This document shows positions 3,171-39,813 of a stretch of 64,000 bases of DNA, piece after piece. The translations under genes were made by a program, and so were the position numbers. Where the stretch lies: the NCBI GenBank assembly GCA_965660445.1, contig CBFIAK010000001.1, forward strand, positions 32,001 through 96,000, written 5' to 3'. The notes below the pieces were generated by a model. It saw only the letters and a program-made list of their open reading frames with translations, made no database searches and was not told the origin of the DNA. The DNA is from Patescibacteria group bacterium (lineage in GTDB: Bacteria > Patescibacteriota > Gracilibacteria > UBA4473). Every line of letters starts with the position of its first letter. Within the stretch, counting starts at the first letter, position 1.

Positions 3171-4268
3171 ATGATATCTACAGAAAAAAACAAATGCCCC
3201 CTTGCTCTCTACGCACAGACAAATAGAACACAAGGGAGACAGCATCCCGAAGCAGAAGATCCACAAAGAAATCCGTTTCAAAGAGATCGGAATCGTATTA
3301 TTCACACGACTGCTTTTCGGCGTCTACAAGGAAAAACACAGGTCGTTTCTCCTGATTACGGTGATCATTTTCGAAACCGACTCACGCATACCATTGAAGT
3401 ATCTCTTACTTCTCGTGATATTGCACGACAACTGAATGTGAACGAAGACCTATGTGAATCTATAGCTCTTGCTCATGATTTAGGCCATCCACCGTTTGGA
3501 CATGCAGGAGAAGATGCACTCCACAAGAAAATGAAATCAGTGGGACTTACGTTTGATCATAACAAACAAAGTTTGAGAATGGTTGATATATTTGAGTCTC
3601 GATATTTTGGGTTTCGAGGTATTAATCTTACAAAAGAAGTAAGAGAAGGTATCGAAAAACACGAAAATATATTCTTCACAAAAACCAATGAACGAATCTA
3701 TTTTCCACATATAGAATCACAAGTAGTTGATATAGCCGATGAAATAACATATCTCTGCTCTGATATAGAAGATGGACTTTTGGGAAACTTTTTTAGTGTT
3801 TCAGATCTCCTGACACTCCCTTTGATGAAAAATATTATAAACGATCTCCCTGTCACACAAAGGGAACATCGATCGTCTATTATTCGAAATACAATGCGCA
3901 TCTTGCTTCAATACCTTATCGAAGGAACATTGTCTCATATTAAAACCCACAATATTCGCACACAAACCGATGTCCAAAAACATCCACACCACATTGTGCA
4001 GTTTCAAGACTCTATTCGTACAGAATTTTTACACATAAAACAGTTTCTGTATCAGCAATATTATACTCATCCCGATATTGAAGGAAGAAACCAATCTGGA
4101 ATTGAAAAACTCAATGCAATTTTTGATTTTCTTGTACGCAATCCTTCATCAATACCACACAATTTTATACACGAAGAAAAAAATGATTATATCCGTATTG
4201 GAGACTATATTGCGGGTATGACTGATCGTTTTGCCCTTCAATTTTATACACAAAACATTGCACAGTAA
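3171..4268 (+). CDS. dgt: dNTP triphosphohydrolase (HD superfamily)
   Basis: FQRDRNRI, FRRLQGKTQV, RLTHT, HDLGHPPFGHAGE and DYIAGMTDRFA motifs. Confidence 0.92.
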   Translation: MISTEKNKCPLALYAQTNRTQGRQHPEAEDPQRNPFQRDRNRIIHTTAFRRLQGKTQVVSPDYGDHFRNRLTHTIEVSLTSRDIARQLNVNEDLCESIALAHDLGHPPFGHAGEDALHKKMKSVGLTFDHNKQSLRMVDIFESRYFGFRGINLTKEVREGIEKHENIFFTKTNERIYFPHIESQVVDIADEITYLCSDIEDGLLGNFFSVSDLLTLPLMKNIINDLPVTQREHRSSIIRNTMRILLQYLIEGTLSHIKTHNIRTQTDVQKHPHHIVQFQDSIRTEFLHIKQFLYQQYYTHPDIEGRNQSGIEKLNAIFDFLVRNPSSIPHNFIHEEKNDYIRIGDYIAGMTDRFALQFYTQNIAQ

Positions 4269-8891: not shown

Positions 8892-9905
8892 GTCAAAACG
8901 AGGGTTGGCATCAACAAATGAAACATTCTGATTGTTTTCTTTTTTCTGCGCCCATAGGTATCCAGCTGATGCAATCATAGCGGCATTATCAGTGGAATAC
9001 AAAAATTTATGAGGCATAAAAAACTGAATACCTCTTTCTTTACACCACTGCTGAAAAACTGATCGAATATAAGTATTCGCCGATACTCCACCCACAAAGT
9101 GTAATGCTTTTGTATCTGGAAATTGCTGAAACGATCGATCGAGTTTTTTGAGAAACGTCTGAGCAACACACGACTGAAAGCTCGCACAAACATCGGCTTT
9201 GAATTGTTCTGAAAAAGGTGTTGTTTCTGATTCAAGCAGTCTATATACAGCTGCTTTTAACCCCGAGAAAGAAAAATTTAAAGACTCTTTCTCTAAAAGA
9301 ATAATTGGAAAGGAGAAAGCGTTTGGGTCACCTTTTTCTGCATACTGACTCACAATGGGACCTCCTGGATAAGAAAGTCCGAGCATTTTCGCACATTTAT
9401 CAAACGCCTCCCCTGCTGCATCATCGAGAGTATATCCAATACATTCTACCTTATGCCAATGAGAAACTCTATACAGATGTGTATGCCCTCCGGACACAGT
9501 CAGTGTTAAACTGGGAAACTCAAAATCATCAAACGATCGATCAAGAAGGGGGGAAACAATATGTCCGTATACATGGTGAATCGGAATAATTGGTTTTTGT
9601 AATAACAGTGACAAAAAACTACCAACAGTAGTTCCGGTGAGAAGTGATGTTTGAAGCCCTGGACCGACTGTTACTGCTATAGCATCAATATCGTGCATAC
9701 GCATTTGTGAAACACTCAGTAGTTCTTCAAAAAGAGGGATAATGTGCAATTCATGAAGTCGCGCCGCCAGCTCTGGCACCACTCCCCCATAGTGAGCATG
9801 ATTCGTTATTTGAGAATGGGTAACATGCGCACACACATGTGTTGCGTTTTGCACAATACTCAAGGCTGTGTCATCACACGACGATTCGATACCAAGAATG
9901 TTCAT
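8859..9905 (-). CDS. tsaD: tRNA threonylcarbamoyladenosine synthesis protein
   Basis: GIESSCDDT, GGVVPELAAR, VSGGHT, DDAAGEAFDK and TDNAAMIA motifs. Confidence 0.96.
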   Translation of the reverse strand: MNILGIESSCDDTALSIVQNATHVCAHVTHSQITNHAHYGGVVPELAARLHELHIIPLFEELLSVSQMRMHDIDAIAVTVGPGLQTSLLTGTTVGSFLSLLLQKPIIPIHHVYGHIVSPLLDRSFDDFEFPSLTLTVSGGHTHLYRVSHWHKVECIGYTLDDAAGEAFDKCAKMLGLSYPGGPIVSQYAEKGDPNAFSFPIILLEKESLNFSFSGLKAAVYRLLESETTPFSEQFKADVCASFQSCVAQTFLKKLDRSFQQFPDTKALHFVGGVSANTYIRSVFQQWCKERGIQFFMPHKFLYSTDNAAMIASAGYLWAQKKENNQNVSFVDANPRFDLQSFMAQMHS

Positions 9906-10324: not shown

Positions 10325-12418
10325 TTATTTTCGTTCACTAATAATTTTTTCCGAAACACTTGATGGGACTTTATCATAATGAGAAAACTCCATTGAATAA
10401 CTCGCACGTCCTTGTGTAAATGATCGAAGATCAGTTGCATACCCAAACATGGACGCCAAAGGAATTTTTGCTTGTACACATTTTGCAAGTCCTCGGTCAC
10501 CACTTTCTTGAATAATTCCTCTTCGAGACGAAATATCTCCCATAACATCTCCTAAGTAATCTTCTGGTGTGACAATCTCAACAGACATAATAGGTTCCAA
10601 AAGAACTGGTTTTGCTTTTTTTGCTCCTTCTTTGAAAGCATGAATAGCTGCTGTTTTAAACGCTAATTCTGAAGAGTCCACATCATGATAAGACCCATCA
10701 ATAAGCTCTACTTCTACATCAACAACAGGATACCCTGCCAAAACTCCTCGATTAATAGCTTCTGTAAACCCTTTTTGACATCCCGGAATGTATTCATTTG
10801 GAATAGAAGCTCCTTTAATAGAGTTAATAAACTTAAACGAAGCATCATCATCTGTGGTTTTGACTCTTGGTCGAATTTTACAAACAACATGTCCAAACTG
10901 ACCACGTCCTCCTGATTGCTTCTTATGCGTATATTCTGATTCTACTTCTTGTTGAATTGTTTCTCTATACGCTACTTGTGGTTGTCCGATATTTGCTTCG
11001 ACTTTAAACTCTCGTTTCATACGATCCACTAAAACATCAAGATGTAATTCACCCATCCCCGACATAATAGTTTGTCCAGTATCTTCATCCGTATACACTT
11101 TGAATGTTGGATCTTCTTCTGCAAGTTTTTGTAACGCCAACCCCATTTTTTCTTGATCGGCTTTTGTTTTTGGTTCAATAGAAATTGAAATAACTGGTTC
11201 TGGAAAGTTCATAGACTCAAGCACAATGGGTTGTTTTTCATCACATAATGTTTCCCCTGTTTTTGTACTCTTAATACCCACAACCGCTCCAATATGTCCA
11301 GCAGGAATTTCTTGAATTTCTTCTCGAGTATTGGCATGCATTTGAAGCAATCGTCCAATACGTTCTTTTTCTCCTGAATTTACGTTGTACACATATGACC
11401 CAGAACTTAAGACACCTGAATACACACGCACAAAAGTAATTCGTCCCACATATGGATCGGTTGCAATTTTGAATGCCAAAGCAGCGAGTGGTTCTGTTTT
11501 GCTTGGTTTTCGTCTAATAATTTCTTCTGCATTGTCTGGATGATGCCCATCAATACTTCCTACATCTAATGGGGTTGGCAAATAATACGTAACCGCATCA
11601 AGCAGAGGTTGAACTCCTTTGTTTTTGAGAGCCGTTCCTGTTAAAACTGGTACAAAATGCCCCTTAATAGTTGCTTTTCGAATTCCTGCTCGAATTTCAT
11701 CGACTGTTAACTCACTACCCTCAAGATATTTTTCCATCAATGCTTCATCCGTAGTTGCAATCGCTTCTAACATTTTCCCTCTCCATTCTTGTGCAACTTT
11801 CATTTCTTCAGCGGGAACATCAATTACTTCTAGTTCTTTTCCTGCATCATCATGATAAATAGTCGCTTTCATTTCTACTAAGTCAATAATCCCTTGAAAC
11901 TGAGACTCTATTCCAATGGGAAGCTGAATAGGATATGCATCTTTCGTAAGTCGCTCAATAATCGATTCGTATGAACGCCAAAAACTCGCCCCTGTTCGAT
12001 CAAGTTTATTGATAAAACACATTCGAGGAACTTTATACGTATCAGCTTGTCGCCATACAGTTTCTGATTGTGGCTCAACACCCGCAACACCATCAAACAC
12101 ACAAACCGCTCCATCAAGGACTCGAAGTGATCGCTCTACTTCTACCGTAAAATCAACGTGCCCAGGTGTATCGATAATATTAATCTGACAATCTTGCCAA
12201 AAACAAGTTGTTGCCGCAGAAGTAATAGTAATTCCACGCTCTTGTTCTTGTTCCATCCAGTCCATAGTTGCCTGACCATCATGAACTTCCCCAATTTTAT
12301 GTGACCGTCCTGTATAAAACAAGATTCGTTCGGTTACAGTGGTTTTTCCAGCATCAATATGGGCAATAATCCCGATATTTCGCACTTTGTCTAATGAGTA
12401 ATGTTGAGGTTTTGACAT
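10325..12418 (-). CDS. fusA: Elongation factor G
   Basis: [33 protein letters not shown] and all five EF-G domains. Confidence 0.98.
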
Positions 12419-26458: not shown

Positions 26459-27328
26459 ATGACCATTCCTCCAGAAGTGATGACACAGATTAAAAAAGCT
26501 CAACAAGGAGAAATGACTGAGTATTATATCTACACAGCGTTATCGCAGAGAGTTTCCCATACACACAACCGAGACATTTTAACCCGCATTGCTGAACAAG
26601 AAAAATCACACAGTGAGTTTTGGGCACAATACACAGGCACACAAGCCACACCAAACGCATGGAAAGTATGGTGGTTTACAACTATTGCTCGTTTATTTGG
26701 GCTTACGTTTGGATTAAGACTTATGGAAAAAGGCGAAGTACATGCACAAAGCATGTACGCATCAATTATCGAGTATGTACCTGAAGGCAAATCTATACTT
26801 GAAGACGAAAAACAACACGAACAAGAACTCATCGAATTACTCCATGAAAAAAAACTCGATTACATGGGTTCGGTTGTTTTAGGACTTAACGATGCGTTGG
26901 TAGAACTAACAGGCGCACTAGCAGGATTATCGTTTGCGTTTCAGAACACACATCTTATTGCTGTCACAGGGCTCATTACAGGTGTAGCAGCATCGTTTTC
27001 GATGGCAGCATCTGAATATTTATCAAATAAAGCAGATGGGAACAAAGATGCTCATATATCGGCTTTGTATACAGGGTTAGCCTATATTGGAACGGTTCTC
27101 TTTTTAGTCACTCCATTTTTCGTATTCACGCATTACGCAGTTGCTTTGGGAGTTTCGCTCAGTATATCAATTTTGATTATTTTCTTTTTCAATTTTTACC
27201 TCTCTATTGCACGAAACACAGAGTTTTGGAAACGTTTTTTTGAGATGGCGGGTATTAGTCTTGGTGTATCAGCTCTGAGTTTTGGTATTGGTATTTTTGT
27301 ACGATTTTATTTTGGGATTGAGGTATAG
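26459..27328 (+). CDS. Rubrerythrin-like domain fused to a VIT1/CCC1 transporter
   Basis: Two ExxH motifs; GLNDAL and SMAASEYL. Confidence 0.85.
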   Translation: MTIPPEVMTQIKKAQQGEMTEYYIYTALSQRVSHTHNRDILTRIAEQEKSHSEFWAQYTGTQATPNAWKVWWFTTIARLFGLTFGLRLMEKGEVHAQSMYASIIEYVPEGKSILEDEKQHEQELIELLHEKKLDYMGSVVLGLNDALVELTGALAGLSFAFQNTHLIAVTGLITGVAASFSMAASEYLSNKADGNKDAHISALYTGLAYIGTVLFLVTPFFVFTHYAVALGVSLSISILIIFFFNFYLSIARNTEFWKRFFEMAGISLGVSALSFGIGIFVRFYFGIEV

Positions 27329-27342
27329 CAAACACCAACCGT

Positions 27343-27418
27343 GTCCCGATATATCGAGAAACAGTATCCCTCCTTTTCATTGCCTCGTTTCACTCGTTAT
27401 TCAAAGCACATTCAACTG
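27343..27418 (-). repeat. tRNA-trailer repeat, copy 1 (inferred original 3' flank of tRNA-Ser)
   Basis: Colinear with 39588-39664, 51 of 77 columns identical by manual alignment. Confidence 0.7.
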
Positions 27419-27468
27419 TGGCGGGCAGAATATGTCTCCTACCCTTTATAGCTATTATTTAATATTTC

Positions 27469-27507
27469 AATGAGACAAACAAGACACTATAAAAAAGGGT
27501 GTCTCAA
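27469..27507. repeat. Left-end GAGACA/TGTCTC hairpin motif, copy 1
   Basis: AATGAGACAAACAAGACACTATAAAAAAGGGTGTCTCAA, nearly identical to 30548-30587. Confidence 0.85.
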
Positions 27508-27509
27508 AA

Positions 27510-30212
27510 TTAAAGATTATTTTTTGCCTTAATTAGCGCGATATCTTTATTATTATTTCTTGTTTTCAAAGAATCTAGGATCTTTTGACCTGCCTCTGGA
27601 GTCCAATATATTTTTAGGTTTTCTCTAGCTCGTGTAATAGCTGTATAAAAAATATTATGAGTAATCAACTCTTCTGTTTCGGCCGTGATTACAATCTTAA
27701 CCGAATTATATTCCAACCCTTGTGCTTTATGGATTGAAACTGCATAAGCTACCTGAAAAGGAATTATTGTGTCCAAAGAGTCATCATCTTCATCAGTACT
27801 TTTATACTTGTTAACAACAAAACGAATCACAGAGGTGTCATCAGATTCACTATCAAGAAGTTCAAGATCATACCTAGACGCTTCAAATCCATTGATAACT
27901 TTTCCAATTTCAATATCAAATTGTATTTGATCTTCAGAGCTATTTATATCGATGATTCTACCTTTTAAGTTATTATAAATTAAAGGCGAAAATCGTTCTG
28001 CCTCGTTAAACAAAATAGGATCATTGACCTTATAGGTTTGGATTCCCCATCTCACTGTTTTGTTTTTGTTATTATTTTGTAAAAACCTATTAATATTATT
28101 TATTCCATAAAGCCCATCATAATTTAAACAAAGAATAATTTCATCGTTTTGTGTATAATCAAAAATTGACTCATCAAGCCTTGCTGAATATTGGTTTCTT
28201 GTTATATGCTCAACAATATCATCATCAATATTTCGAACTTTATCCCAAAGATCAAGTAAGTTTTTATTTGTTGTTCGGTAAGGCTTCGTTAGTTCAAAAA
28301 CTGAATGATCTCGTATAAATGGTCTAATTACACTAAACCAATTTCCGAATAGAATTGATTCAATTTGGAATATGTCACCAACTAAAACTATAGATAAAAA
28401 AGAAACTTTCTCTAATATTTTTTGCATATCAGTATTACTAACAGTACTGCATTCATCAATAAAGAGTAGATCGAACTCACTATCTTGATTACTTCGAGAC
28501 AAGAACTTGGATATAGTTTGAAATTTGCAATTAGAGGCTTGAACTTTTCTTCTCAAATTATCTACAGCAGGGTTTGTGTTTGCTAGATAAAGTTTTCGTT
28601 CATCATTAAAAAAATGTGATATGTGATTTATCAGAGTTGATTTGCCAGTTCCTGCCGCACCATAAATTAGAGCTACTTTGGAGCTTTCAAACATTTGTTC
28701 AATAAACGATTTTTTTTGATCGCAATCAATATCGTAATCAGAAAAATTCAACCAAGCACTAACCGATTTCGAATAGTCTTTAAAGCCTGTTAATGAAAGA
28801 TCCTTTAATTCATTAATAATATATAATACATCTTTTTCATACCCCCTCATATAAATATGATTCTTATAGCTATCAAGTTTTCGATTTCCGTGAGTAAAAT
28901 AAAGTGAATTATTATAAGTTTGAATAAGATCATCAACATTCTCAAAATGATCTAACTCTTCTTGTGGAGTGTATAAATATCCATTAACTTCTGTGTTATT
29001 TTTCACAAATCTTGCGAGTATTTCGTGCTCTCTACCAGTTGAATCAATGCAATCAAACAAATCTGAAATTTTAGGATTATGGTTTTTTAGAGACGTATTA
29101 AATGGCATTTCATCAAAAGGAATACAACCATATTCAAGTTTTAAATCTGATAACTTTATACAAGATGTTCCTGTATACTGCTTTTTTATAATCTGGTTAT
29201 TTAACCGATAGAGCAAATAAGCAATAATATTATGACCTGCTTTTTTATTTTTAATTAAACCTCGACATTCGTCTAAAATACTCAAAAAATGTATAGTTTT
29301 AACTCTTGTTTTTAATGCATCCTGAAAATCTTTATAATTATCATCAGGAAGATTCATAATTTCAGGAACACTAAGACCAGACCTCTTAAGAAGAGACATT
29401 AGTTCTCGTGATTCTGGAGAGTTTCCTCTCATTTTAAGTTCACTTCCAAATATTTTGGCAAAATTATTGAGCTCACATGGCCTAATTGAGATCTCCCAAT
29501 CATCAATAATTTGAATCGGCATCTGTTTATTCAAAACACTTATATAATCATTACTAATTGAAAGTTTAACGGCATAATTTTTGGAAACATCAAATCGTGT
29601 AAATGCAATAATTCTATCAAATTTACTTATGTTATTACTTGCTCGAGTAAAAGTTACCTCATAATAAACTTCATATTGAACAAAAAAGGGTTTTATCTTT
29701 TGAATATAGTATCTGTCACCTGTGGATGATTTAGATCTTCTTGATGCTGGCTGTTTAATTTTGTCAACGATCTTTTCATAATACTCACTAAGTGCTGGAT
29801 CTGTATTTATGGGGAAATCACGAATATTACTAAGAACATCAAGTCCATACTGTCTTTTGAGAAAAGATCTTATTTTCAATAGGTATTCATAGTACTTCAA
29901 AATTAATCTTTCAGAGTTTTCTTCATCAAGGGTGTAATGAGAAGCTGAGATTTTTAACAAGCTATGAAATTTTTTTAAGAACTTCAACTTTCCCATTCGG
30001 CCTACAAAAGCATTAGCTTCCTCAATATTTTCGTAATTAATTTTTATATCATCCCCATTACTGAAAATCTTCAATGAGATATGTTCAACAAAATTCCTAA
30101 GCTGGGAAAGCATATTTTGAGAGAGAATACCCCTTTCTGTAACGTCAAATTTATCAATATTAGCACAAAGAAGTTTATCGATATCTAAGATGGCTTTATC
30201 TATTTTTTGCAT
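27510..30212 (-). CDS. 900-aa RecD-like SF1B helicase with a large uncharacterised N-terminal region
   Basis: GAAGTGKST, FIDECST, VGDIFQI, SIHKAQGLEY and YTAITRARE motifs. Confidence 0.85.
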   Translation of the reverse strand: MQKIDKAILDIDKLLCANIDKFDVTERGILSQNMLSQLRNFVEHISLKIFSNGDDIKINYENIEEANAFVGRMGKLKFLKKFHSLLKISASHYTLDEENSERLILKYYEYLLKIRSFLKRQYGLDVLSNIRDFPINTDPALSEYYEKIVDKIKQPASRRSKSSTGDRYYIQKIKPFFVQYEVYYEVTFTRASNNISKFDRIIAFTRFDVSKNYAVKLSISNDYISVLNKQMPIQIIDDWEISIRPCELNNFAKIFGSELKMRGNSPESRELMSLLKRSGLSVPEIMNLPDDNYKDFQDALKTRVKTIHFLSILDECRGLIKNKKAGHNIIAYLLYRLNNQIIKKQYTGTSCIKLSDLKLEYGCIPFDEMPFNTSLKNHNPKISDLFDCIDSTGREHEILARFVKNNTEVNGYLYTPQEELDHFENVDDLIQTYNNSLYFTHGNRKLDSYKNHIYMRGYEKDVLYIINELKDLSLTGFKDYSKSVSAWLNFSDYDIDCDQKKSFIEQMFESSKVALIYGAAGTGKSTLINHISHFFNDERKLYLANTNPAVDNLRRKVQASNCKFQTISKFLSRSNQDSEFDLLFIDECSTVSNTDMQKILEKVSFLSIVLVGDIFQIESILFGNWFSVIRPFIRDHSVFELTKPYRTTNKNLLDLWDKVRNIDDDIVEHITRNQYSARLDESIFDYTQNDEIILCLNYDGLYGINNINRFLQNNNKNKTVRWGIQTYKVNDPILFNEAERFSPLIYNNLKGRIIDINSSEDQIQFDIEIGKVINGFEASRYDLELLDSESDDTSVIRFVVNKYKSTDEDDDSLDTIIPFQVAYAVSIHKAQGLEYNSVKIVITAETEELITHNIFYTAITRARENLKIYWTPEAGQKILDSLKTRNNNKDIALIKAKNNL

Positions 30213-30547
30213 TCAAAAATAATTGAAGAAAATAATACTCTTATACTACTTTTTTGAAAAATATTGAATAGGATTCTTTATCCAAAAAAGGCAAAAGGGT
30301 CAATAAACTGTAACATTATAGTCTTTAATTCCACTGCCCTTACTGATCTCTCCACCATAGTGACCAACCTTCCAACCCTTTCGACGACTCTAAGGGTTTA
30401 AACAGGTCTTAACAAGCAAAAATCATAATGTACCACTCCCTAGGAAGTAGATCACTATGACGTATTAGTGAATTGTATGGCGGGCAGGAACGGTCTCATG
30501 TCTTATCTGTCATTATCATTAGCCTTTTTTGTATATCTTTTTATCAA

Positions 30548-30587
30548 AATGAGACAAATGAGACACTATAAAAAAGGGGTGTCTCAA
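30548..30587. repeat. Left-end GAGACA/TGTCTC hairpin motif, copy 2
   Basis: AATGAGACAAATGAGACACTATAAAAAAGGGGTGTCTCAA. Confidence 0.85.
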
Positions 30588-30698
30588 TTTTCATAATGTT
30601 ACAAATGTTACACCGTAGAAGGGGCATTAAATAAGGAAAAAAATCCTAGACTTCAAAATCCATTGCGTCATCAATTGAATACAAATTTTATTCAACAA

Positions 30699-31937
30699 AT
30701 GAATAAGTTAGTACCAGAAGTGAAATACTGCATCTATGCGAGGAAGTCGAGTGAATCGGATGAGAAACAAGCCCTATCGATTGGATCACAGATAACCGAA
30801 ATGCAACGGCTGGCAGAAAAAGAAGGACTCAAGGTCGTTGAGAGCATCCAAGAGAGCAAATCTGCCAAAGACTCGGGGCAAAGAGCAGGATTTACACAGC
30901 TTCTCGCAGGGCTTGAGGAAGAGCGGTTCAATGCCATTCTCACATGGGCACCAGATCGGCTGAGTAGAAATGCGGGAGACCTTGGGAAACTGGTAGATCT
31001 AATGGATCAGAAGGTGCTTGTGAAGATTCAGACAAGCGGACAGGCATTCACAAACACTCCTGATGAAAAATTCCTGCTCATGATCCTGTGTTCTCAAGCC
31101 AAGTTAGAAAACGATAACAGGTCAAAGAATGTGAAACGAGGACAACGAACACGGTGCGAAATGGGAACTAGTCCTGGACCCGTGCCACTTGGATATAAAC
31201 TCATCCGAGGACAAAAATACGGAGAAGCGAGTAAGATTTTAATCGATACGGAACAAGCCCCATTCGTTAAAAAAGCATTCGAATATATCGCTTATGAGAA
31301 CTTAAGTGGACGACAGGTAAAAGAATATCTGGAAGATGAAGGATTCCGTAATAAACAAGGGAAAGTCATTGGATATAGTCGAATTTTCAAAATCATTAAA
31401 GAACCGTTTTACTACGGTGAGTTTGATTATGGAGGAATCCGATACAAAGGAACTCATAAACCGATAATCACAAAAGAACTCTTTGATGCTGTTCAAGACA
31501 AACTGCAAAAATATGCGGTTCGAGAAAAATGGGGACGAAAAGATTTTTACTTCAATCGGATTCTGAAATGTGCTGAGTGTGGATCAGGTGTCAGTGGAAC
31601 AGAACACACAAACAGACATGGAACCAAATACATCTACTACAAATGCAACAAATATGGCGGAACAAAAAAATGTAGTTGCAAATACATTCGAGAAGAAAAA
31701 CTTTTTGAAGAAGTGGCAAAAATCATTGTCGACGTAAAAGAAGAACATCTTCGAATGAATCGACGAATCAAAGAAGACTTAATAATGATAAATCGGCATC
31801 ACAGAGAAAAACCAATAACAATCCAAGAGCATTTAATCTCCATACTCAAGGATGGAACGAAAAAAGAGAAATCTGATATTTTGAGGAGTTTTAAAGAGAA
31901 ATTATTATTGAAAGATGGGAAAATAGTATTGTTTTAA
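30699..31937 (+). CDS. Large serine recombinase (resolvase, recombinase and Zn-ribbon domains)
   Basis: YARKS catalytic motif, DRLSRN, PLGY, FYYG, HKPII, CAECG and YYKC. Confidence 0.92.
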   Translation: MNKLVPEVKYCIYARKSSESDEKQALSIGSQITEMQRLAEKEGLKVVESIQESKSAKDSGQRAGFTQLLAGLEEERFNAILTWAPDRLSRNAGDLGKLVDLMDQKVLVKIQTSGQAFTNTPDEKFLLMILCSQAKLENDNRSKNVKRGQRTRCEMGTSPGPVPLGYKLIRGQKYGEASKILIDTEQAPFVKKAFEYIAYENLSGRQVKEYLEDEGFRNKQGKVIGYSRIFKIIKEPFYYGEFDYGGIRYKGTHKPIITKELFDAVQDKLQKYAVREKWGRKDFYFNRILKCAECGSGVSGTEHTNRHGTKYIYYKCNKYGGTKKCSCKYIREEKLFEEVAKIIVDVKEEHLRMNRRIKEDLIMINRHHREKPITIQEHLISILKDGTKKEKSDILRSFKEKLLLKDGKIVLF

Positions 31938-32023
31938 CGTCAGGAATATACGAAGTTTTGCGACTGAAAGGAGTAAAATTTGGGTGAAGCCTGCAAGGAT
32001 TTTCTCTTTAAGCCTTGTTATGT
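31932..32023 (-). repeat. attC-like site 2 (apparently chimeric)
   Basis: Minus strand reads CACATAAC...GTTAAAAC; same layout as site 1. Confidence 0.72.
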
Positions 32024-32091
32024 GGTTTTTCTGCAAGAAAAACTGCTGGAGAAAATCTTTGATTTTCGTAAGCACAGTATGACGGAGGACA

Positions 32092-32589
32092 CTATCTACT
32101 AGAATAAAAATCCTGTATTTCTTTCCAACTTCCATCAATCTTTTTTGCTAAAGAGTATCTTGAGATTCTATCTTTTCGACTAATTAATTCTTTTGAAGTT
32201 CTATCAAATTGTGAAGATGATTTTGAAATTGTTAAATGTGGATTATAATTATCTTCAAAATATTGTTTTGCGATTACATCAAATTCTGAATCAGCATAAT
32301 TTCTTACAACAGAAACAATTCCTTTATGCAATTGCAAAAGCTCATCAGAACGAGATAATTTTAACACTAAAGAATCTTTATCAAAATCATCGAAACCTAA
32401 AGTTTCAAATTCAAAAGGATTAAAACTAATTTGAGAAAAATCAGTAACCAATTTATTTTCATGTTTAGGTTTCATATAGAAAAAACAAAGTGTAGAATGT
32501 AAACCAGAACTTGGTAGAACTAAATTATTTTGTCTCGAAATTAAATTGGACAATTCTTCGTTTGGTCGAAAATAAGCAAGATACTTCAT
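32092..32589 (-). CDS. 2H phosphoesterase (LigT/2'-5' RNA ligase-like); ORF of cassette 2 (31938-32653)
   Basis: Two HxT motifs, LHSTL and PHLTI. Confidence 0.8.
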   Translation of the reverse strand: MKYLAYFRPNEELSNLISRQNNLVLPSSGLHSTLCFFYMKPKHENKLVTDFSQISFNPFEFETLGFDDFDKDSLVLKLSRSDELLQLHKGIVSVVRNYADSEFDVIAKQYFEDNYNPHLTISKSSSQFDRTSKELISRKDRISRYSLAKKIDGSWKEIQDFYSSR

Positions 32590-32647
32590 AAATTAAGGAA
32601 AGAAATACAGTAATATAAATATTTGGATAGTGTTCGAGTAATATTGC

Positions 32648-32729
32648 ACATAACATCAGGATTTAACAAAGTTCGCGGAGCGAATTTGGGAAATTCCTGC
32701 AAGGAATTTCTGTTAAATCCTTGTTAAAT
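32648..32729 (-). repeat. attC-like site 1
   Basis: Plus strand TAACA-TC-AGGATTTAACA...TGTTAAATCCT-TGTTA forms a stem with a 2-nt bulge; minus-strand cores CATTTAAC and GTTATGTG. Confidence 0.82.
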
Positions 32730-32790
32730 GAGGGTGAGCGAAGCGAAAGGCTGCAAGCCGTCCCCGACTGACTGCAAGGAAGGAGAGTTT

Positions 32791-33309
32791 CTACAAACAA
32801 ACGTCATCAGTCAAGAGAATTTGCTTTTTACCAAGAATATGTTTTAAACTATCAATTGCCGAATCATGATTATTTTTCCCATGTAAAGAATTACAAGCAT
32901 CTTCAATTACAAAAGTTTCAATATTATTATCAAATAAATCCATCGCAGTTTTGATAATACAAACATCCGTGTAAATCCCAGTAAGATAAATTTTTGTAAT
33001 TTTATTAGTTTTAATGAATTCTTTTAATTCATTATTTAATACAGTATAAGTATTATGCTGAATGTTTATATTGTCTGATGTTTGTAATTCGGAAAATAGT
33101 TTTTGATCTTCTTTATTTTGAAATTTAGTCCAACTTAATTGTTTTTCAAATAAAGATTTTCCATCATTAACAAATGTTGGAAAAACTATTTTTCCATTAA
33201 ATGATTCTTTCAATTTTAAAAGATTCGGCAATATATTCTCAGATTCTTGGTATCTAAAACCTTCTTGCATATCAATTATTAAAAGCAAATTCTCCATAAT
33301 ATAAAACAT
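32791..33309 (-). CDS. Isochorismatase/cysteine hydrolase family protein; ORF of cassette 1 (32654-33354)
   Basis: LLIIDMQEGF, GIYTDVCI and IEDAC motifs; start may be ATG 33297. Confidence 0.85.
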   Translation of the reverse strand: MFYIMENLLLIIDMQEGFRYQESENILPNLLKLKESFNGKIVFPTFVNDGKSLFEKQLSWTKFQNKEDQKLFSELQTSDNINIQHNTYTVLNNELKEFIKTNKITKIYLTGIYTDVCIIKTAMDLFDNNIETFVIEDACNSLHGKNNHDSAIDSLKHILGKKQILLTDDVCL

Positions 33310-33347
33310 AAATTACTTTGTATATAAAAGTTTGTTTGTAGAAATTT

Positions 33348-33370
33348 CATTTAACTCGTTTTTATCCAAC
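33348..33370 (-). other. attI-like recombination site
   Basis: Minus strand GTTGGAT-aaaaacga-G/TTAAATG; the GTTAAATG core exactly complements the CATTTAAC of site 1. Confidence 0.7.
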
Positions 33371-33382
33371 CTTTGTATTTCA

Positions 33383-33411
33383 AATATAGCAATTTCTTGT
33401 ATGTTATGCAA
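33383..33411 (-). promoter_or_regulatory. Pc-like promoter facing the cassettes
   Basis: TTGCAT-17 nt-TATATT with an extended -10 TG on the minus strand. Confidence 0.55.
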
Positions 33412-33431
33412 ACTTTTATTATTCTTTGGAT

Positions 33432-34244
33432 ATGGAAAATATTTTGGACAAAACCGAACGAGTTTGGAAATTGAGAAACTACTCCCCAAAAACTCGCAAA
33501 GCATATCTGTTCTACATAAGAGAGTATATCAGTTTTTCTAAAGGAAAAGGAATTAAAGATAAACAAAAAGCGATTGAAGATTTTTTGCTTGATAAATACA
33601 ATCGTAAACAATCTCCGCAAACAGTTAATCTGGCACTCAATGCGGTAAAATTTCTGTACGCGGAAGTTTTGAAAGATCCACAAAAGATTGACTTGAAGTT
33701 TGCGAAGAGAGACAAGAAATTACCCATTGTTTTGTCTCATGCAGAAATTAAAGAAATTATCCAGGCGACTGAAAATGCAAAATACAAACTCATGATTTCG
33801 CTTGGCTATGCTTGCGGTCTGCGTGTGAGTGAAGTTATAAATCTACGTGTTGCAGATTTGGATATTGATGAACTCGTCGTACATATCAAAGGAGCAAAGG
33901 GGAAAAAAGACAGAATCAGTGTTTTGCCAGAAAAATTACAAAATGATTTGCGAAATATCATTGCAGGCAAAAGTAATAATGATTTTATCTTTGCCTCTAA
34001 TCGAGGAGGAAAACTCACAACAACGTCTTTACAAAAAATGTTCCGCAAAAGTTTAGCCAATACGAACATAAGAAAACCCGCTACCTTTCACTCATTGCGT
34101 CATTCATTCGCCACGCATTTACTCGAAAATGGAACCGATGTGAGATATGTGCAAGAACTGCTTGGGCATTCCAACATCCGCACCACACAAGTGTATACGC
34201 AAGTAACAAATCCAAAGTTAAAGAACATAAAAAGCCCTTTATAA
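33432..34244 (+). CDS. IntI-like tyrosine recombinase lacking the IntI-specific insertion
   Basis: N-terminal LRNYSPKTRKAY, KKLPIVLS, GLRVSE, KGKKDR, HSLRHSFATHLL, LGH...TQVYT and a C-terminal SPL. Confidence 0.9.
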   Translation: MENILDKTERVWKLRNYSPKTRKAYLFYIREYISFSKGKGIKDKQKAIEDFLLDKYNRKQSPQTVNLALNAVKFLYAEVLKDPQKIDLKFAKRDKKLPIVLSHAEIKEIIQATENAKYKLMISLGYACGLRVSEVINLRVADLDIDELVVHIKGAKGKKDRISVLPEKLQNDLRNIIAGKSNNDFIFASNRGGKLTTTSLQKMFRKSLANTNIRKPATFHSLRHSFATHLLENGTDVRYVQELLGHSNIRTTQVYTQVTNPKLKNIKSPL

Positions 34245-34402
34245 ATATTTTTAAAACTGCCCTTATCGCACATACCTCATAGGAAGCAAAAACTCCTACC
34301 CATGCGACGACTTTGAAGGCTTTATCAACGCTAAATACCCCAAATGTCCCAATGCCCCATCCACCATAGTGGAAAGGAACCAGGTGCCATTAGTGCGTTG
34401 TC

Positions 34403-34493
34403 TGGCGGAGAGAGAGGGATTCGAACCCTCGGTTCCGGAAAACGGAACACACGCTTTCCAAGCGTGCGCATTCGACCACTCTGCCATCTCTCC
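34403..34493 (-). tRNA. tRNA-Ser(GGA)
   Basis: GGAGAGATGGCAGAGTGG...CTTGGAAAG...long variable arm...GGTTCGAATCC...CCGCCA. Confidence 0.96.
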
Positions 34494-39587: not shown

Positions 39588-39664
39588 CAGTTGAATTTGA
39601 GATAAGCAAGGAGCGAAGTGACGCAGTCGAATCCAAAGATACGGTGTCCCAAATACATCGGGAC
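39588..39664 (+). repeat. tRNA-trailer repeat, copy 2
   Basis: Homologous to 27343-27418 on the minus strand. Confidence 0.7.
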
Positions 39665-39813
39665 TATTTCAAGTACGTCATCATCCTAGAAGCGACAAGC
39701 GAAGCGAGTCGGAAATGGAATGTTGTCGGAACAAAGAAAAATAAACATAAAAATTAAAAAACAAGTTTCCATGGAAAAAGAAAAAGATTAATATACGATT
39801 AAGAAAAAAACTC

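Follow-up and report, generated by a model that had tools for sequence, protein, structure and literature searches.

Two stacked putative large serine recombinase elements at the CCA end of a tRNA-Ser gene in a patescibacterial genome

Results

We analyzed a 64,000-nt stretch of DNA from a Patescibacteria group bacterium (assembly GCA_965660445.1, contig CBFIAK010000001.1, positions 32,001 to 96,000; hereafter the window), in which two adjacent segments, here termed elements A and B, abut the 3′ end of a tRNA-Ser(gga) gene. Element A carries a single helicase gene, and element B encodes a large serine recombinase (LSR), two small cargo proteins, and a 272-residue tyrosine recombinase that we call tyr272. 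The window belongs to a 991-kb genome (G000; its contigs C1 and C3 are cited below) with 36 tRNA genes, which we compared with relatives from other genera only; G-numbers denote the compared genomes, and L-numbers denote individual loci from relatives or metagenomes. The standard genetic code fits G000: the coverage by stop-to-stop frames of 150 codons or more is 92% under table 11 and would be 151% with TGA readthrough. An alternative code was rejected on this basis; some relatives do show many in-frame TGA codons.

The two elements are delimited by three copies of the hexamer TGGCGG, all of which stand where the original prediction had placed them. Copy 1 (27419..27424) forms the outer junction of element A, and copy 2 (30478..30483) forms the A/B junction, where right end, core and left end follow one another in an attP-like order. 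Copy 3 (34403-34408) is the reverse complement of CCGCCA, the final six bases of the intact tRNA-Ser(gga) gene (34403..34493, minus strand; identified by ARAGORN; Rfam tRNA, 61.3 bits). Element A spans 27419-30477 (3,059 bp) and element B spans 30478-34402 (3,925 bp), for a combined length of 6,984 bp. The left ends of both elements read TGGCGGGCAG-N5-GTCTC and continue into an inverted-repeat block of GAGACA motifs (the GAGACA block, a left-end repeat or hairpin), as had been claimed. The left half-site has the form core-N8-TGTCT in element A (27425..27438, plus strand) and core-N8-GGTCTC in element B (30484..30498, plus strand). The GAGACA block of element A (27469..27507, plus strand) is not followed by a recombinase gene, and that of element B (30548..30588, plus strand) lies ~110 bp upstream of the recombinase start; positions 27469-27499 and 30548-30578 of the two blocks are 94% identical. 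The right ends, which read ATTAGTG-NN-TTGT-N-TGGCGG at 30464 and 34389, agree at 17 of 20 bases by hand count. Each is the tip of a ~150-bp conserved right-end block that we call the R module: R1 of element A (30323..30477, minus strand) is a diverged copy, R2 of element B (34248..34402, minus strand) lies between tyr272 and the tRNA gene, and both end in ATTAGTG-N7 before the core.

The longer words shared by these ends are restricted to them, in line with the original prediction. Counting both strands of G000, the left-end 10-mer TGGCGGGCAG occurs twice, once per left end, and the right-end 12-mer and 10-mer (TCCACCATAGTG and ACTGCCCTTA) also occur twice each. Other words are commoner (16 copies of CGACGACT, 71 of ATTAGTG and 175 of TGGCGG), and the bare TGGCGG hexamer by itself carries no meaning. 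Local alignment gives a score of 63 for the left-end pair (shuffled sequences, 16.0 ± 2.4) and of 30 for the right-end pair (15.9 ± 2.2), values that no shuffle in 500 attains. Two interior segments aligned as a control score 27 (shuffles 23.9 ± 3.7), a value that 110 of 500 shuffles reach. The identity common to all three junctions and the tRNA end is the 6 bp of TGGCGG, and the left ends share 10 bp with each other; a short identity of this kind, with no long direct repeats, is what is expected of an LSR element.

The sequence just beyond element A (27328..27418, minus strand) opens with CAGTTGAAT in the tRNA sense and would form the B′ side of an attB site. Window positions 27328-27424 are 92% identical over 99 bp to C1:465471-465569, the sequence that follows tRNA-Ser(gct), and at that locus trailer, TGGCGG and tRNA body are contiguous without an insert. 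Because 27328-27418 matches the sequence directly after tRNA-Ser(gct) and shares its CAGTTGAAT opening, we interpret it as the native 3′ trailer of tRNA-Ser(gga), displaced by 6,984 bp. The tRNA-Ser(gct) paralog, judged by this match, represents an in-genome image of the empty site. The homologous ends and this uninterrupted copy of the site together bear out the proposal of a tandem pair with exact boundaries. The junction CCA-CAGTTGAAT had also been noted after tRNA-Gly, and it is indeed found after tRNA-Gly(gcc): the 9-mer follows 2 of the 36 tRNA genes in G000, those for tRNA-Gly(gcc) and tRNA-Ser(gct). A GTCCC...GGGAC hairpin is common to the tRNA-Gly(gcc) locus (window 39588-39665), the tRNA-Ser(gct) locus (C1:465471-465563) and the displaced trailer.

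Four relatives that retain the neighborhood of rpoB and tRNA-Ser(gga), L007, L011, L012 and L013, have no insert at this tRNA gene. At the same rpoB-adjacent gene, L014, L015 and L016 contain an insert with the same R module and different cargo; the relatives L014-L018 were picked because their match extended beyond the tRNA, so these occupancy counts are not a frequency. One contig contains an apparent excision joint, 27418->34403, with a shorter side of 24 letters. We attribute this joint to the tRNA-Ser(gct) paralog and not to excision, as the locus of the paralog matches the window site for 45 bp on its left side and for ~31 bp on its right and yields the same joint.

The LSR gene of element B (30699..31937, plus strand) encodes 412 residues from an ATG codon; the open reading frame (ORF) is listed from a TTG at 30663. 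Its product matches the Pfam families PF00239 (Resolvase, 79.5 bits), PF07508 (Recombinase, 59.6 bits) and PF13408 (Zn_ribbon_recom, 38.7 bits), all above their cut-offs. The best NCBIfam match is CcrB at 119 bits (cut-off 900), followed by CcrA at 68 (700) and CcrC at 60 (900), and with all three scores far under their cut-offs the enzyme was ruled out as a Ccr protein.

The end design seen in the window recurs widely. In other genera, R modules adjoin tRNA-Ser genes with the anticodons gga, tga and gct, at loci whose titles name Candidatus Gracilibacteria, Peribacteria, Altimarinota or Patescibacteria metagenome-assembled genomes (MAGs). GAGACA blocks are 87-98% identical across genera, and 43 of 43 bases of the element B block recur at C1:668595-668637, upstream of an LSR paralog. 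We compared the left half-site of element A with 10 other hairpin-bearing left ends: nine of the 11 loci found through the hairpin read TGG-NNN-N8-GGTCT exactly, element A has one mismatch, and the partly masked L028 does not fit. The distance from core to GAGACA repeat varies from 30 to 73 bp among nine left ends, counted by hand. From these alignments a putative family site can be reconstructed as ATTAGTG-N7-core-N8-GGTCT, where the core is NNNCCA of the tRNA gene (TGGCGG on the window plus strand); the reconstructed frame is 34 bp long and its center lies inside the core. A compact LSR attP typically measures about 50 bp and is imperfectly symmetric around a central dinucleotide.

This design allowed a prediction within G000. 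At the second hairpin locus in the genome the core reads TGGCAG instead of TGGCGG, and therefore a tRNA gene ending in CTGCCA was predicted, before looking, on the plus strand at lower coordinates. The tRNA-Trp(cca) gene at C1:645810-645883 fits the prediction: it has the CTGCCA end, and an R-like module comes next. The island that extends from there to the hairpin locus (C1:645884-668696, 22.8 kb) has at its far side a left end of the form TGGCAG-N8-GGTCT, a hairpin and an LSR paralog, and in all it encodes two LSR paralogs (47% and 53% identical to that of element B), a ParB-methylase, a methylase, a helix-turn-helix (HTH) protein and terminase-like ORFs. Genome G016 contains a ~19-kb element with an LSR of 52.6% identity and TGGCTG at both ends (L027:2629 and L052:3806), the right one being the end of a tRNA-Gln gene. 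At L097, an element with an LSR of 76% identity is bounded by TGGCGG at tRNA-Ser(tga) and has an R module. No tyr272-type gene was found in the tRNA-Trp island, as the two tyrosine recombinases of G000 are tyr272 and an Xer-like protein on C3; there are four serine recombinases. In G016 the only match to tyr272 at E <= 1e-20 is an Xer-like gene at 883 kb, and none lies in the tRNA-Gln island. LSR relatives were compared at 33 metagenome loci; at 10 of these a tRNA gene lies downstream of the LSR gene, and the first such tRNA is convergent with the LSR in all 10, at 0.13-7 kb (L063 and L064 look like one sequence filed twice). The idea that the serine recombinase is the mover gains support from this comparison, in which the same ends, with a covarying core, occur at tRNA-Trp and tRNA-Gln LSR islands that lack a tyr272-type gene. 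The serine recombinase, as judged across these loci, appears as the common denominator of the end design.

Stacks like that in the window are common in the family, with further examples in L035, L057 and L065. L065 has two left-end-like sites (TGGCGG-N8/9-GTCT, at 70-110 and 140-175) 75 bp apart upstream of one hairpin, which looks like a trace of stacking. Pseudo- or partial-tRNA spacers occur in L035 and L057. In L057, a 152-bp pseudo-tRNA-Ser stands on both sides of an ABC-transporter island (4049-4200 and 9637-9788), with acceptor halves kept and no call by ARAGORN, and an LSR element follows the second copy. Such spacers could serve as fresh landing sites.

We noted several other sites with parts of this design. 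After tRNA-Gln(ttg) in G000, a 52-bp stretch at C1:115675-115730 ends in AGACC-N8-CAGCCA and looks like the scar of a minimal element, and tRNA-Gln(ctg), near C1:113200-113304, has an R-like trailer. R-module inserts without a recombinase occur at tRNA-Ser genes in L023 (1.44 kb), L021 (0.6 kb) and L014 (5.5 kb), with tRNA-end repeats of 37, 8 and 29 bp, respectively; the L023 insert holds a single ORF, named Fic-like by eye. An R-module 19-mer also lies 7 nt after a tRNA-like 3′ end in GCCA in a contig of an Oceanicoccus-titled MAG (L044:2900-3100), which points either to misbinning of the contig or to a related element beyond this lineage. Two Lachnoanaerobaculum matches of the same 19-mer, in unrelated sequence with no adjoining tRNA end, were set aside as chance.

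The R module was rejected as a structured RNA gene. RNAalifold on 15 copies gave 13 pairs, two with a compensatory change, and a covariation term of -0.26, and Rfam matched only the tRNA and no family in the R module. Protein-binding DNA is the likelier identity of the module. By eye, TTGAAA-18-TATAAA can be read in the hairpin copies at C1:668 kb and in L057, and a promoter consensus scan of 27300-30750 returned 18 sites, against 17.6 expected, with none on the plus strand at the hairpins.

The sole gene of element A (27510..30212, minus strand) encodes a 900-residue superfamily 1 (RecD2-like) helicase with Pfam AAA_30, Viral_helicase1 and UvrD_C_2 domains. It matches the PADLOC profile PDC-S53 at 1335.8 bits, with residues 1-899 aligned to positions 1-895 of 900, which marks it as a candidate single-gene defense system. 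The gene is patchily distributed, being found in 4 of 400 other genomes of the class and in none of 42 from the same family; one homolog, 83% identical, is in another family. Two PDC-S53 homologs contain 15 (G071:C3:22776-25478) and 26 (G309:C2:76920-79604) in-frame TGA codons, so the gene has passed between lineages that differ in how they read TGA.

Over 2,887 bp, the left end, hairpin and helicase of element A match one extremity of the 15.5-kb LSR element in L097 at 80.6% identity; in that element, the interval between helicase and LSR encodes a ParB-methylase, a methylase, an HTH protein and a broken terminase. The similarity ends ~60 bp upstream of the helicase start, and in the window the R1 module follows. 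The original prediction had read element A as a recombinase-less satellite; beside this larger counterpart, element A does not look purpose-built. Most simply, it would be a deletion derivative in which both ends and a single cargo gene survive and the recombinase has been lost. In the literature on integrative and conjugative elements (ICEs) and integrative and mobilizable elements (IMEs), an element with both ends and no integrase is termed a cis-mobilizable element (CIME) (PMC5704250). Element A has both att ends and no recombinase gene, and its neighbor, element B, encodes the LSR, its candidate cognate recombinase; it would be mobile only through a recombinase acting in trans or jointly with element B.

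In addition to the LSR, element B encodes two cargo proteins on the minus strand: a 165-residue member of the 2H phosphoesterase/2′-5′ RNA ligase superfamily (32092..32589; PF13563, 37.7 bits; TIGR02258, 28.6 bits, under the cut-off) and a 172-residue isochorismatase-family hydrolase (32791..33309; PF00857, 100.5 bits). With its LSR, these two genes, the accessory tyr272 and R2, element B is a candidate autonomous unit. The claim that replication and transfer genes are absent stands within the window by profile scans, which detected no primase, polymerase, replicative helicase or packaging module of the phage-inducible chromosomal island (PICI) type in A or B; it does not extend to relatives of the element, which carry ParB-methylase, methylase, HTH and terminase genes. 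A phage collection yielded no match to the LSR above 29% identity, and in viral contigs no junction motif was found, with LSR relatives there limited to two fragments without ends. One public sequencing run, possibly the source of the assembly, holds the stretch in the form of contigs. Contig depth is 16.9 over element A, 19.2 over element B, and 18.0 and 18.3 over the flanks, and for short unitigs the depth fluctuates too much for an empty site present in a minority of cells to stand out. The reading frames of the LSR and tyr272 are intact.

Tyr272 (33426..34244, plus strand) is an IntI/XerA-like tyrosine recombinase without the IntI-specific insertion. Its best NCBIfam family is TIGR02249 (integron integrase), at 226 bits against a cut-off of 265. 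Its best Protein Data Bank match is Vibrio IntI4 (2a3v; E = 4e-46), to which it aligns in two stretches that skip ~31 residues of the IntI4 chain (approximately 211-241), the place of the IntI-specific insertion. Tyr272 was rejected as the host Xer, as genes at least 47% identical to it occur in 8 of 40 relatives and almost all of them have a ~310-residue Xer-like gene. Besides tyr272, G000 has one tyrosine recombinase, the Xer-like gene of ~316 residues at C3:7171-7716. By its distribution, tyr272 is an accessory gene, and the organism seems to have a single Xer.

Two attC-like repeats accompany the cargo genes. The imperfect palindrome at 32645..32735 has ATTTAAC and GTTAAAT boxes and a predicted DNA fold of -20.9 kcal/mol (z = -6.8), matched by none of 200 shuffles. 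The degenerate repeat at 31928..32030 is 82% identical over 44 nt to 32683-32726, with fold z values of 0.44 and 0.21. Matches of attC-like 10-mers elsewhere in G000 were discarded, their number being at chance level. In L100, small ORFs beside a tyr272-type gene are flanked by inverted repeats of 26-30 nt with 78-88% complementarity (10665-11076 and 11149-11658); an inverted-repeat pair in the window beside tyr272 (32815-32841 and 33268-33294) may be chance.

Discussion

The pair of segments at tRNA-Ser(gga) probably represents two members of one LSR element family, stacked at the CCA end of the gene and integrating at the last six bases (NNNCCA) of tRNA genes. This interpretation draws on features legible in the DNA itself: where the elements begin and end, an end design common to the family, cores that covary with their tRNAs, and the gene content. 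We propose that the site on a circular element would recombine with the terminal hexamer of a tRNA gene, and that integration would leave the tRNA intact and displace its native trailer. The LSR would presumably catalyze this exchange, with a crossover at some position within the core, and either element may or may not still be able to move.

Several observations weigh against this interpretation. Classical LSRs recombine only attP with attB, and the likes of the phiC31 and Bxb1 integrases refuse hybrid sites, yet a hybrid site would be needed to place a second element beside the first. The half-sites show weak dyad symmetry by eye, the TGTCT of the element A left half-site departs by one mismatch from the family GGTCT, and a 150-bp module together with repeated GAGACA boxes exceeds what an LSR attP usually needs. 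No directionality factor is seen in the window, and neither circle junctions nor excised forms of A or B were seen in the contigs of the single run, an assembly form that drops rare variants. At nine metagenome tRNA junctions, we looked for the same hexamer with GTCT upstream and found none. Moreover, several R-module inserts in relatives carry no recombinase at all, and two of them have direct repeats of 29 bp (L014) and 37 bp (L023); long direct repeats of a tRNA end are the classical signature of tyrosine integrases. Tyr272-type genes have also been encountered twice near a tRNA-Ser 3′ end, in the window and in L100. As for the hybrid site, three routes to stacking are conceivable: the enzyme could, by analogy, be permissive like the Ccr recombinases; the R module and GAGACA boxes could alter the site rules; or A and B could have arrived as a block.

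In a competing reading, tyr272 is the enzyme that integrates element B and the R-module family as a whole, with the LSR as cargo or as responsible for some other step. The position of tyr272 is the usual one for integrases of tRNA islands, as the R module fills the 160 bp that separate the gene from the tRNA 3′ end, and in L100 a homolog of 47% identity is found tail to tail with tRNA-Ser(tga) at a distance of 1.6 kb. The long tRNA-end repeats in the L014 and L023 inserts are tyrosine-integrase-like, and a 6-bp core is compatible with an Xer-type overlap region. Yet among the R-module loci examined tyr272 lies beside an R module only in the window, and its 82%-identical ortholog in L030 neighbors restriction-modification genes and PdxS, with neither a tRNA nor an R module; the one in L091 sits among housekeeping-looking ORFs. 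The tRNA-Trp island in G000 and the tRNA-Gln island in G016 have the same end design without a tyr272-type gene, and tyr272 itself, with only a SAM-like N-terminal and a catalytic domain by Pfam, lacks an arm-binding domain with which to use the 150-bp module; we regard this reading as quite improbable. It is also doubtful that A and B form one composite, integrated or inherited as a block and now a fixed relic, with the internal junction left over from an older accretion or a rearrangement. Such a relic would fit with the single 15.5-kb element in L097 that matches A on its left and B on its right, with contig depths over A and B equal to the flanks, and with the missing directionality factor, the mismatched half-site of A and the strong divergence of R1 from R2. 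The internal junction, however, is not a scar: right end, core and left end are all complete there, and another whole hairpin follows. A recent duplication would not account for how far the ends of A and B have diverged; comparable stacks exist in L035, L057 and L065; and the LSR and tyr272 frames are intact. A chance likeness of AT-rich intergenic sequence around a tRNA gene, involving no mobile elements, can be considered refuted: the bare hexamer does occur 175 times in G000, but the 10- and 12-mers are confined to the predicted ends, no shuffle in 500 reaches the end alignments, the paralogous site is uninterrupted, and the end motifs are conserved across genera.

The original prediction also included a two-tier design, compatible with LSR-driven integration at tRNA ends, in which the LSR moves the platform and tyr272 loads cassettes. 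As considered here, tyr272 would load and unload them at attC-like sites inside the platform, as in a mini-integron. The layout is integron-like, as tyr272 is divergent from two small same-strand ORFs with a related repeat after each; the repeat at 32645-32735 folds strongly and has RYYYAAC/GTTRRRY-like boxes; and the closest family and structure of tyr272 are integron integrase and IntI4. In addition, a tyr272 homolog heads eight small same-strand ORFs in L100 and another abuts an LSR in L089. Against this design, tyr272 lacks the IntI-specific insertion and scores under the TIGR02249 cut-off, and only one of the two repeats folds (z = 0.4 for 31928-32030). BLAST finds no further copy of the attC-like repeat in G000, and 40 relatives contain no match at the DNA level. 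The genes upstream of the tyr272 ortholog in L030 form a tight restriction-modification operon without spacers, and the L100 ORFs have no attC-like repeat common to all, with a single 33-nt pair found. The two-tier design is thus not demonstrated, and we consider it unlikely. A more elaborate version joins both ideas: the LSR element would carry a second system, in which an insertion-less IntI-like recombinase captures single genes at folded attC-like sites, giving a mobile mini-integron that hops between tRNA CCA ends in a bacterium of the Candidate Phyla Radiation (CPR), and the GAGACA boxes and R module would be res-like accessory sites that permit hybrid sites and so explain stacking. We offer this version as speculation with a low chance of being right.

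As probable members of an LSR family that targets tRNA ends, A and B are nothing new in kind: islands at tRNA genes, accretion in tandem and derivatives without an integrase are all familiar. Our literature search found no paper on such elements in Gracilibacteria/Peribacteria-like bacteria, whose mobile DNA is almost undescribed, and the window yields an exact predicted attB and attP for an LSR family in this group. The LSRs seem to recognize the terminal hexamer of a tRNA gene, with paralogs apparently tuned to the tRNAs for Ser, Trp and Gln. If this is true, they make up a natural series of integrases with distinct and highly conserved targets, which would have value as tools and bear on how serine integrases change specificity. 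The elements also suggest that the small genomes of this group gain and stack single defense genes at tRNAs, among them the PDC-S53 helicase, restriction-modification genes and a Fic-like ORF. Most noteworthy, in our view, are the clearly delimited att sites predicted here and what looks like a change of target from one tRNA to another.

Among known systems, the staphylococcal cassette chromosome (SCC) elements, including SCCmec and pseudo-SCC, use Ccr LSRs and stack in tandem at the 3′ end of rlmH, which they keep active, and their arrays include members without a recombinase. The window resembles them in having LSR cassettes stacked at the 3′ end of a conserved gene, and CcrB is the best NCBIfam match of its LSR. 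It differs in having one recombinase in place of a CcrA/CcrB pair, in targeting a tRNA CCA end, and in the R module and GAGACA repeats that flank the core. In the res sites of Tn3 and gamma-delta resolvases, a crossover site is accompanied by further repeated boxes near the serine recombinase gene. Similarly, the window has GTCTCA-type boxes in both orientations within ~110 bp of the crossover site and just upstream of the LSR gene, and by analogy these could be putative accessory or autoregulatory binding sites. Unlike in res sites, the enzyme is a large serine recombinase and the distance from core to repeat is variable. With integrons, element B shares a divergently oriented recombinase, small same-strand ORFs, one folded attC-like palindrome and IntI4 as the closest structure. 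However, tyr272 lacks the IntI-specific insertion and has a sub-cut-off score, the second site is degenerate, there is no array, and no attI is definable; tyr272 is not an integron integrase in the strict sense.

The accretion of ICEs and IMEs with CIMEs offers a closer parallel, in that the internal site is a chimera of two elements' ends, with a 6-bp repeat here (PMC5704250). The tRNA accretions described there use tyrosine integrases, unlike the pair in the window, and serine-recombinase IMEs are described as mostly inserting within, and disrupting, dispensable genes (PMC5704250). A and B further differ from such accretions in having no conjugation or mobilization module and in their CPR host. 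Tycheposons of Prochlorococcus are marine, tRNA-targeted, cargo-bearing and stacked, with older ones pushed into the island and remnants common; 27 of the 937 elements in that study carry an LSR in place of a tyrosine recombinase, and some are satellite-like with terS (bioRxiv 10.1101/2020.12.28.424599). Shared with them are the tRNA target and the stacking, and relatives of the window element carry an HTH protein and a terminase. In contrast, neighboring tycheposons are split by partial tRNA copies, whereas the window shares 6 bp only, and they often have primase, helicase or polymerase modules, of which A and B have none (bioRxiv 10.1101/2020.12.28.424599). By analogy, then, the pair at tRNA-Ser(gga) appears to behave like CIME-type tandem accretions, SCC arrays and the LSR-bearing minority of tycheposons.

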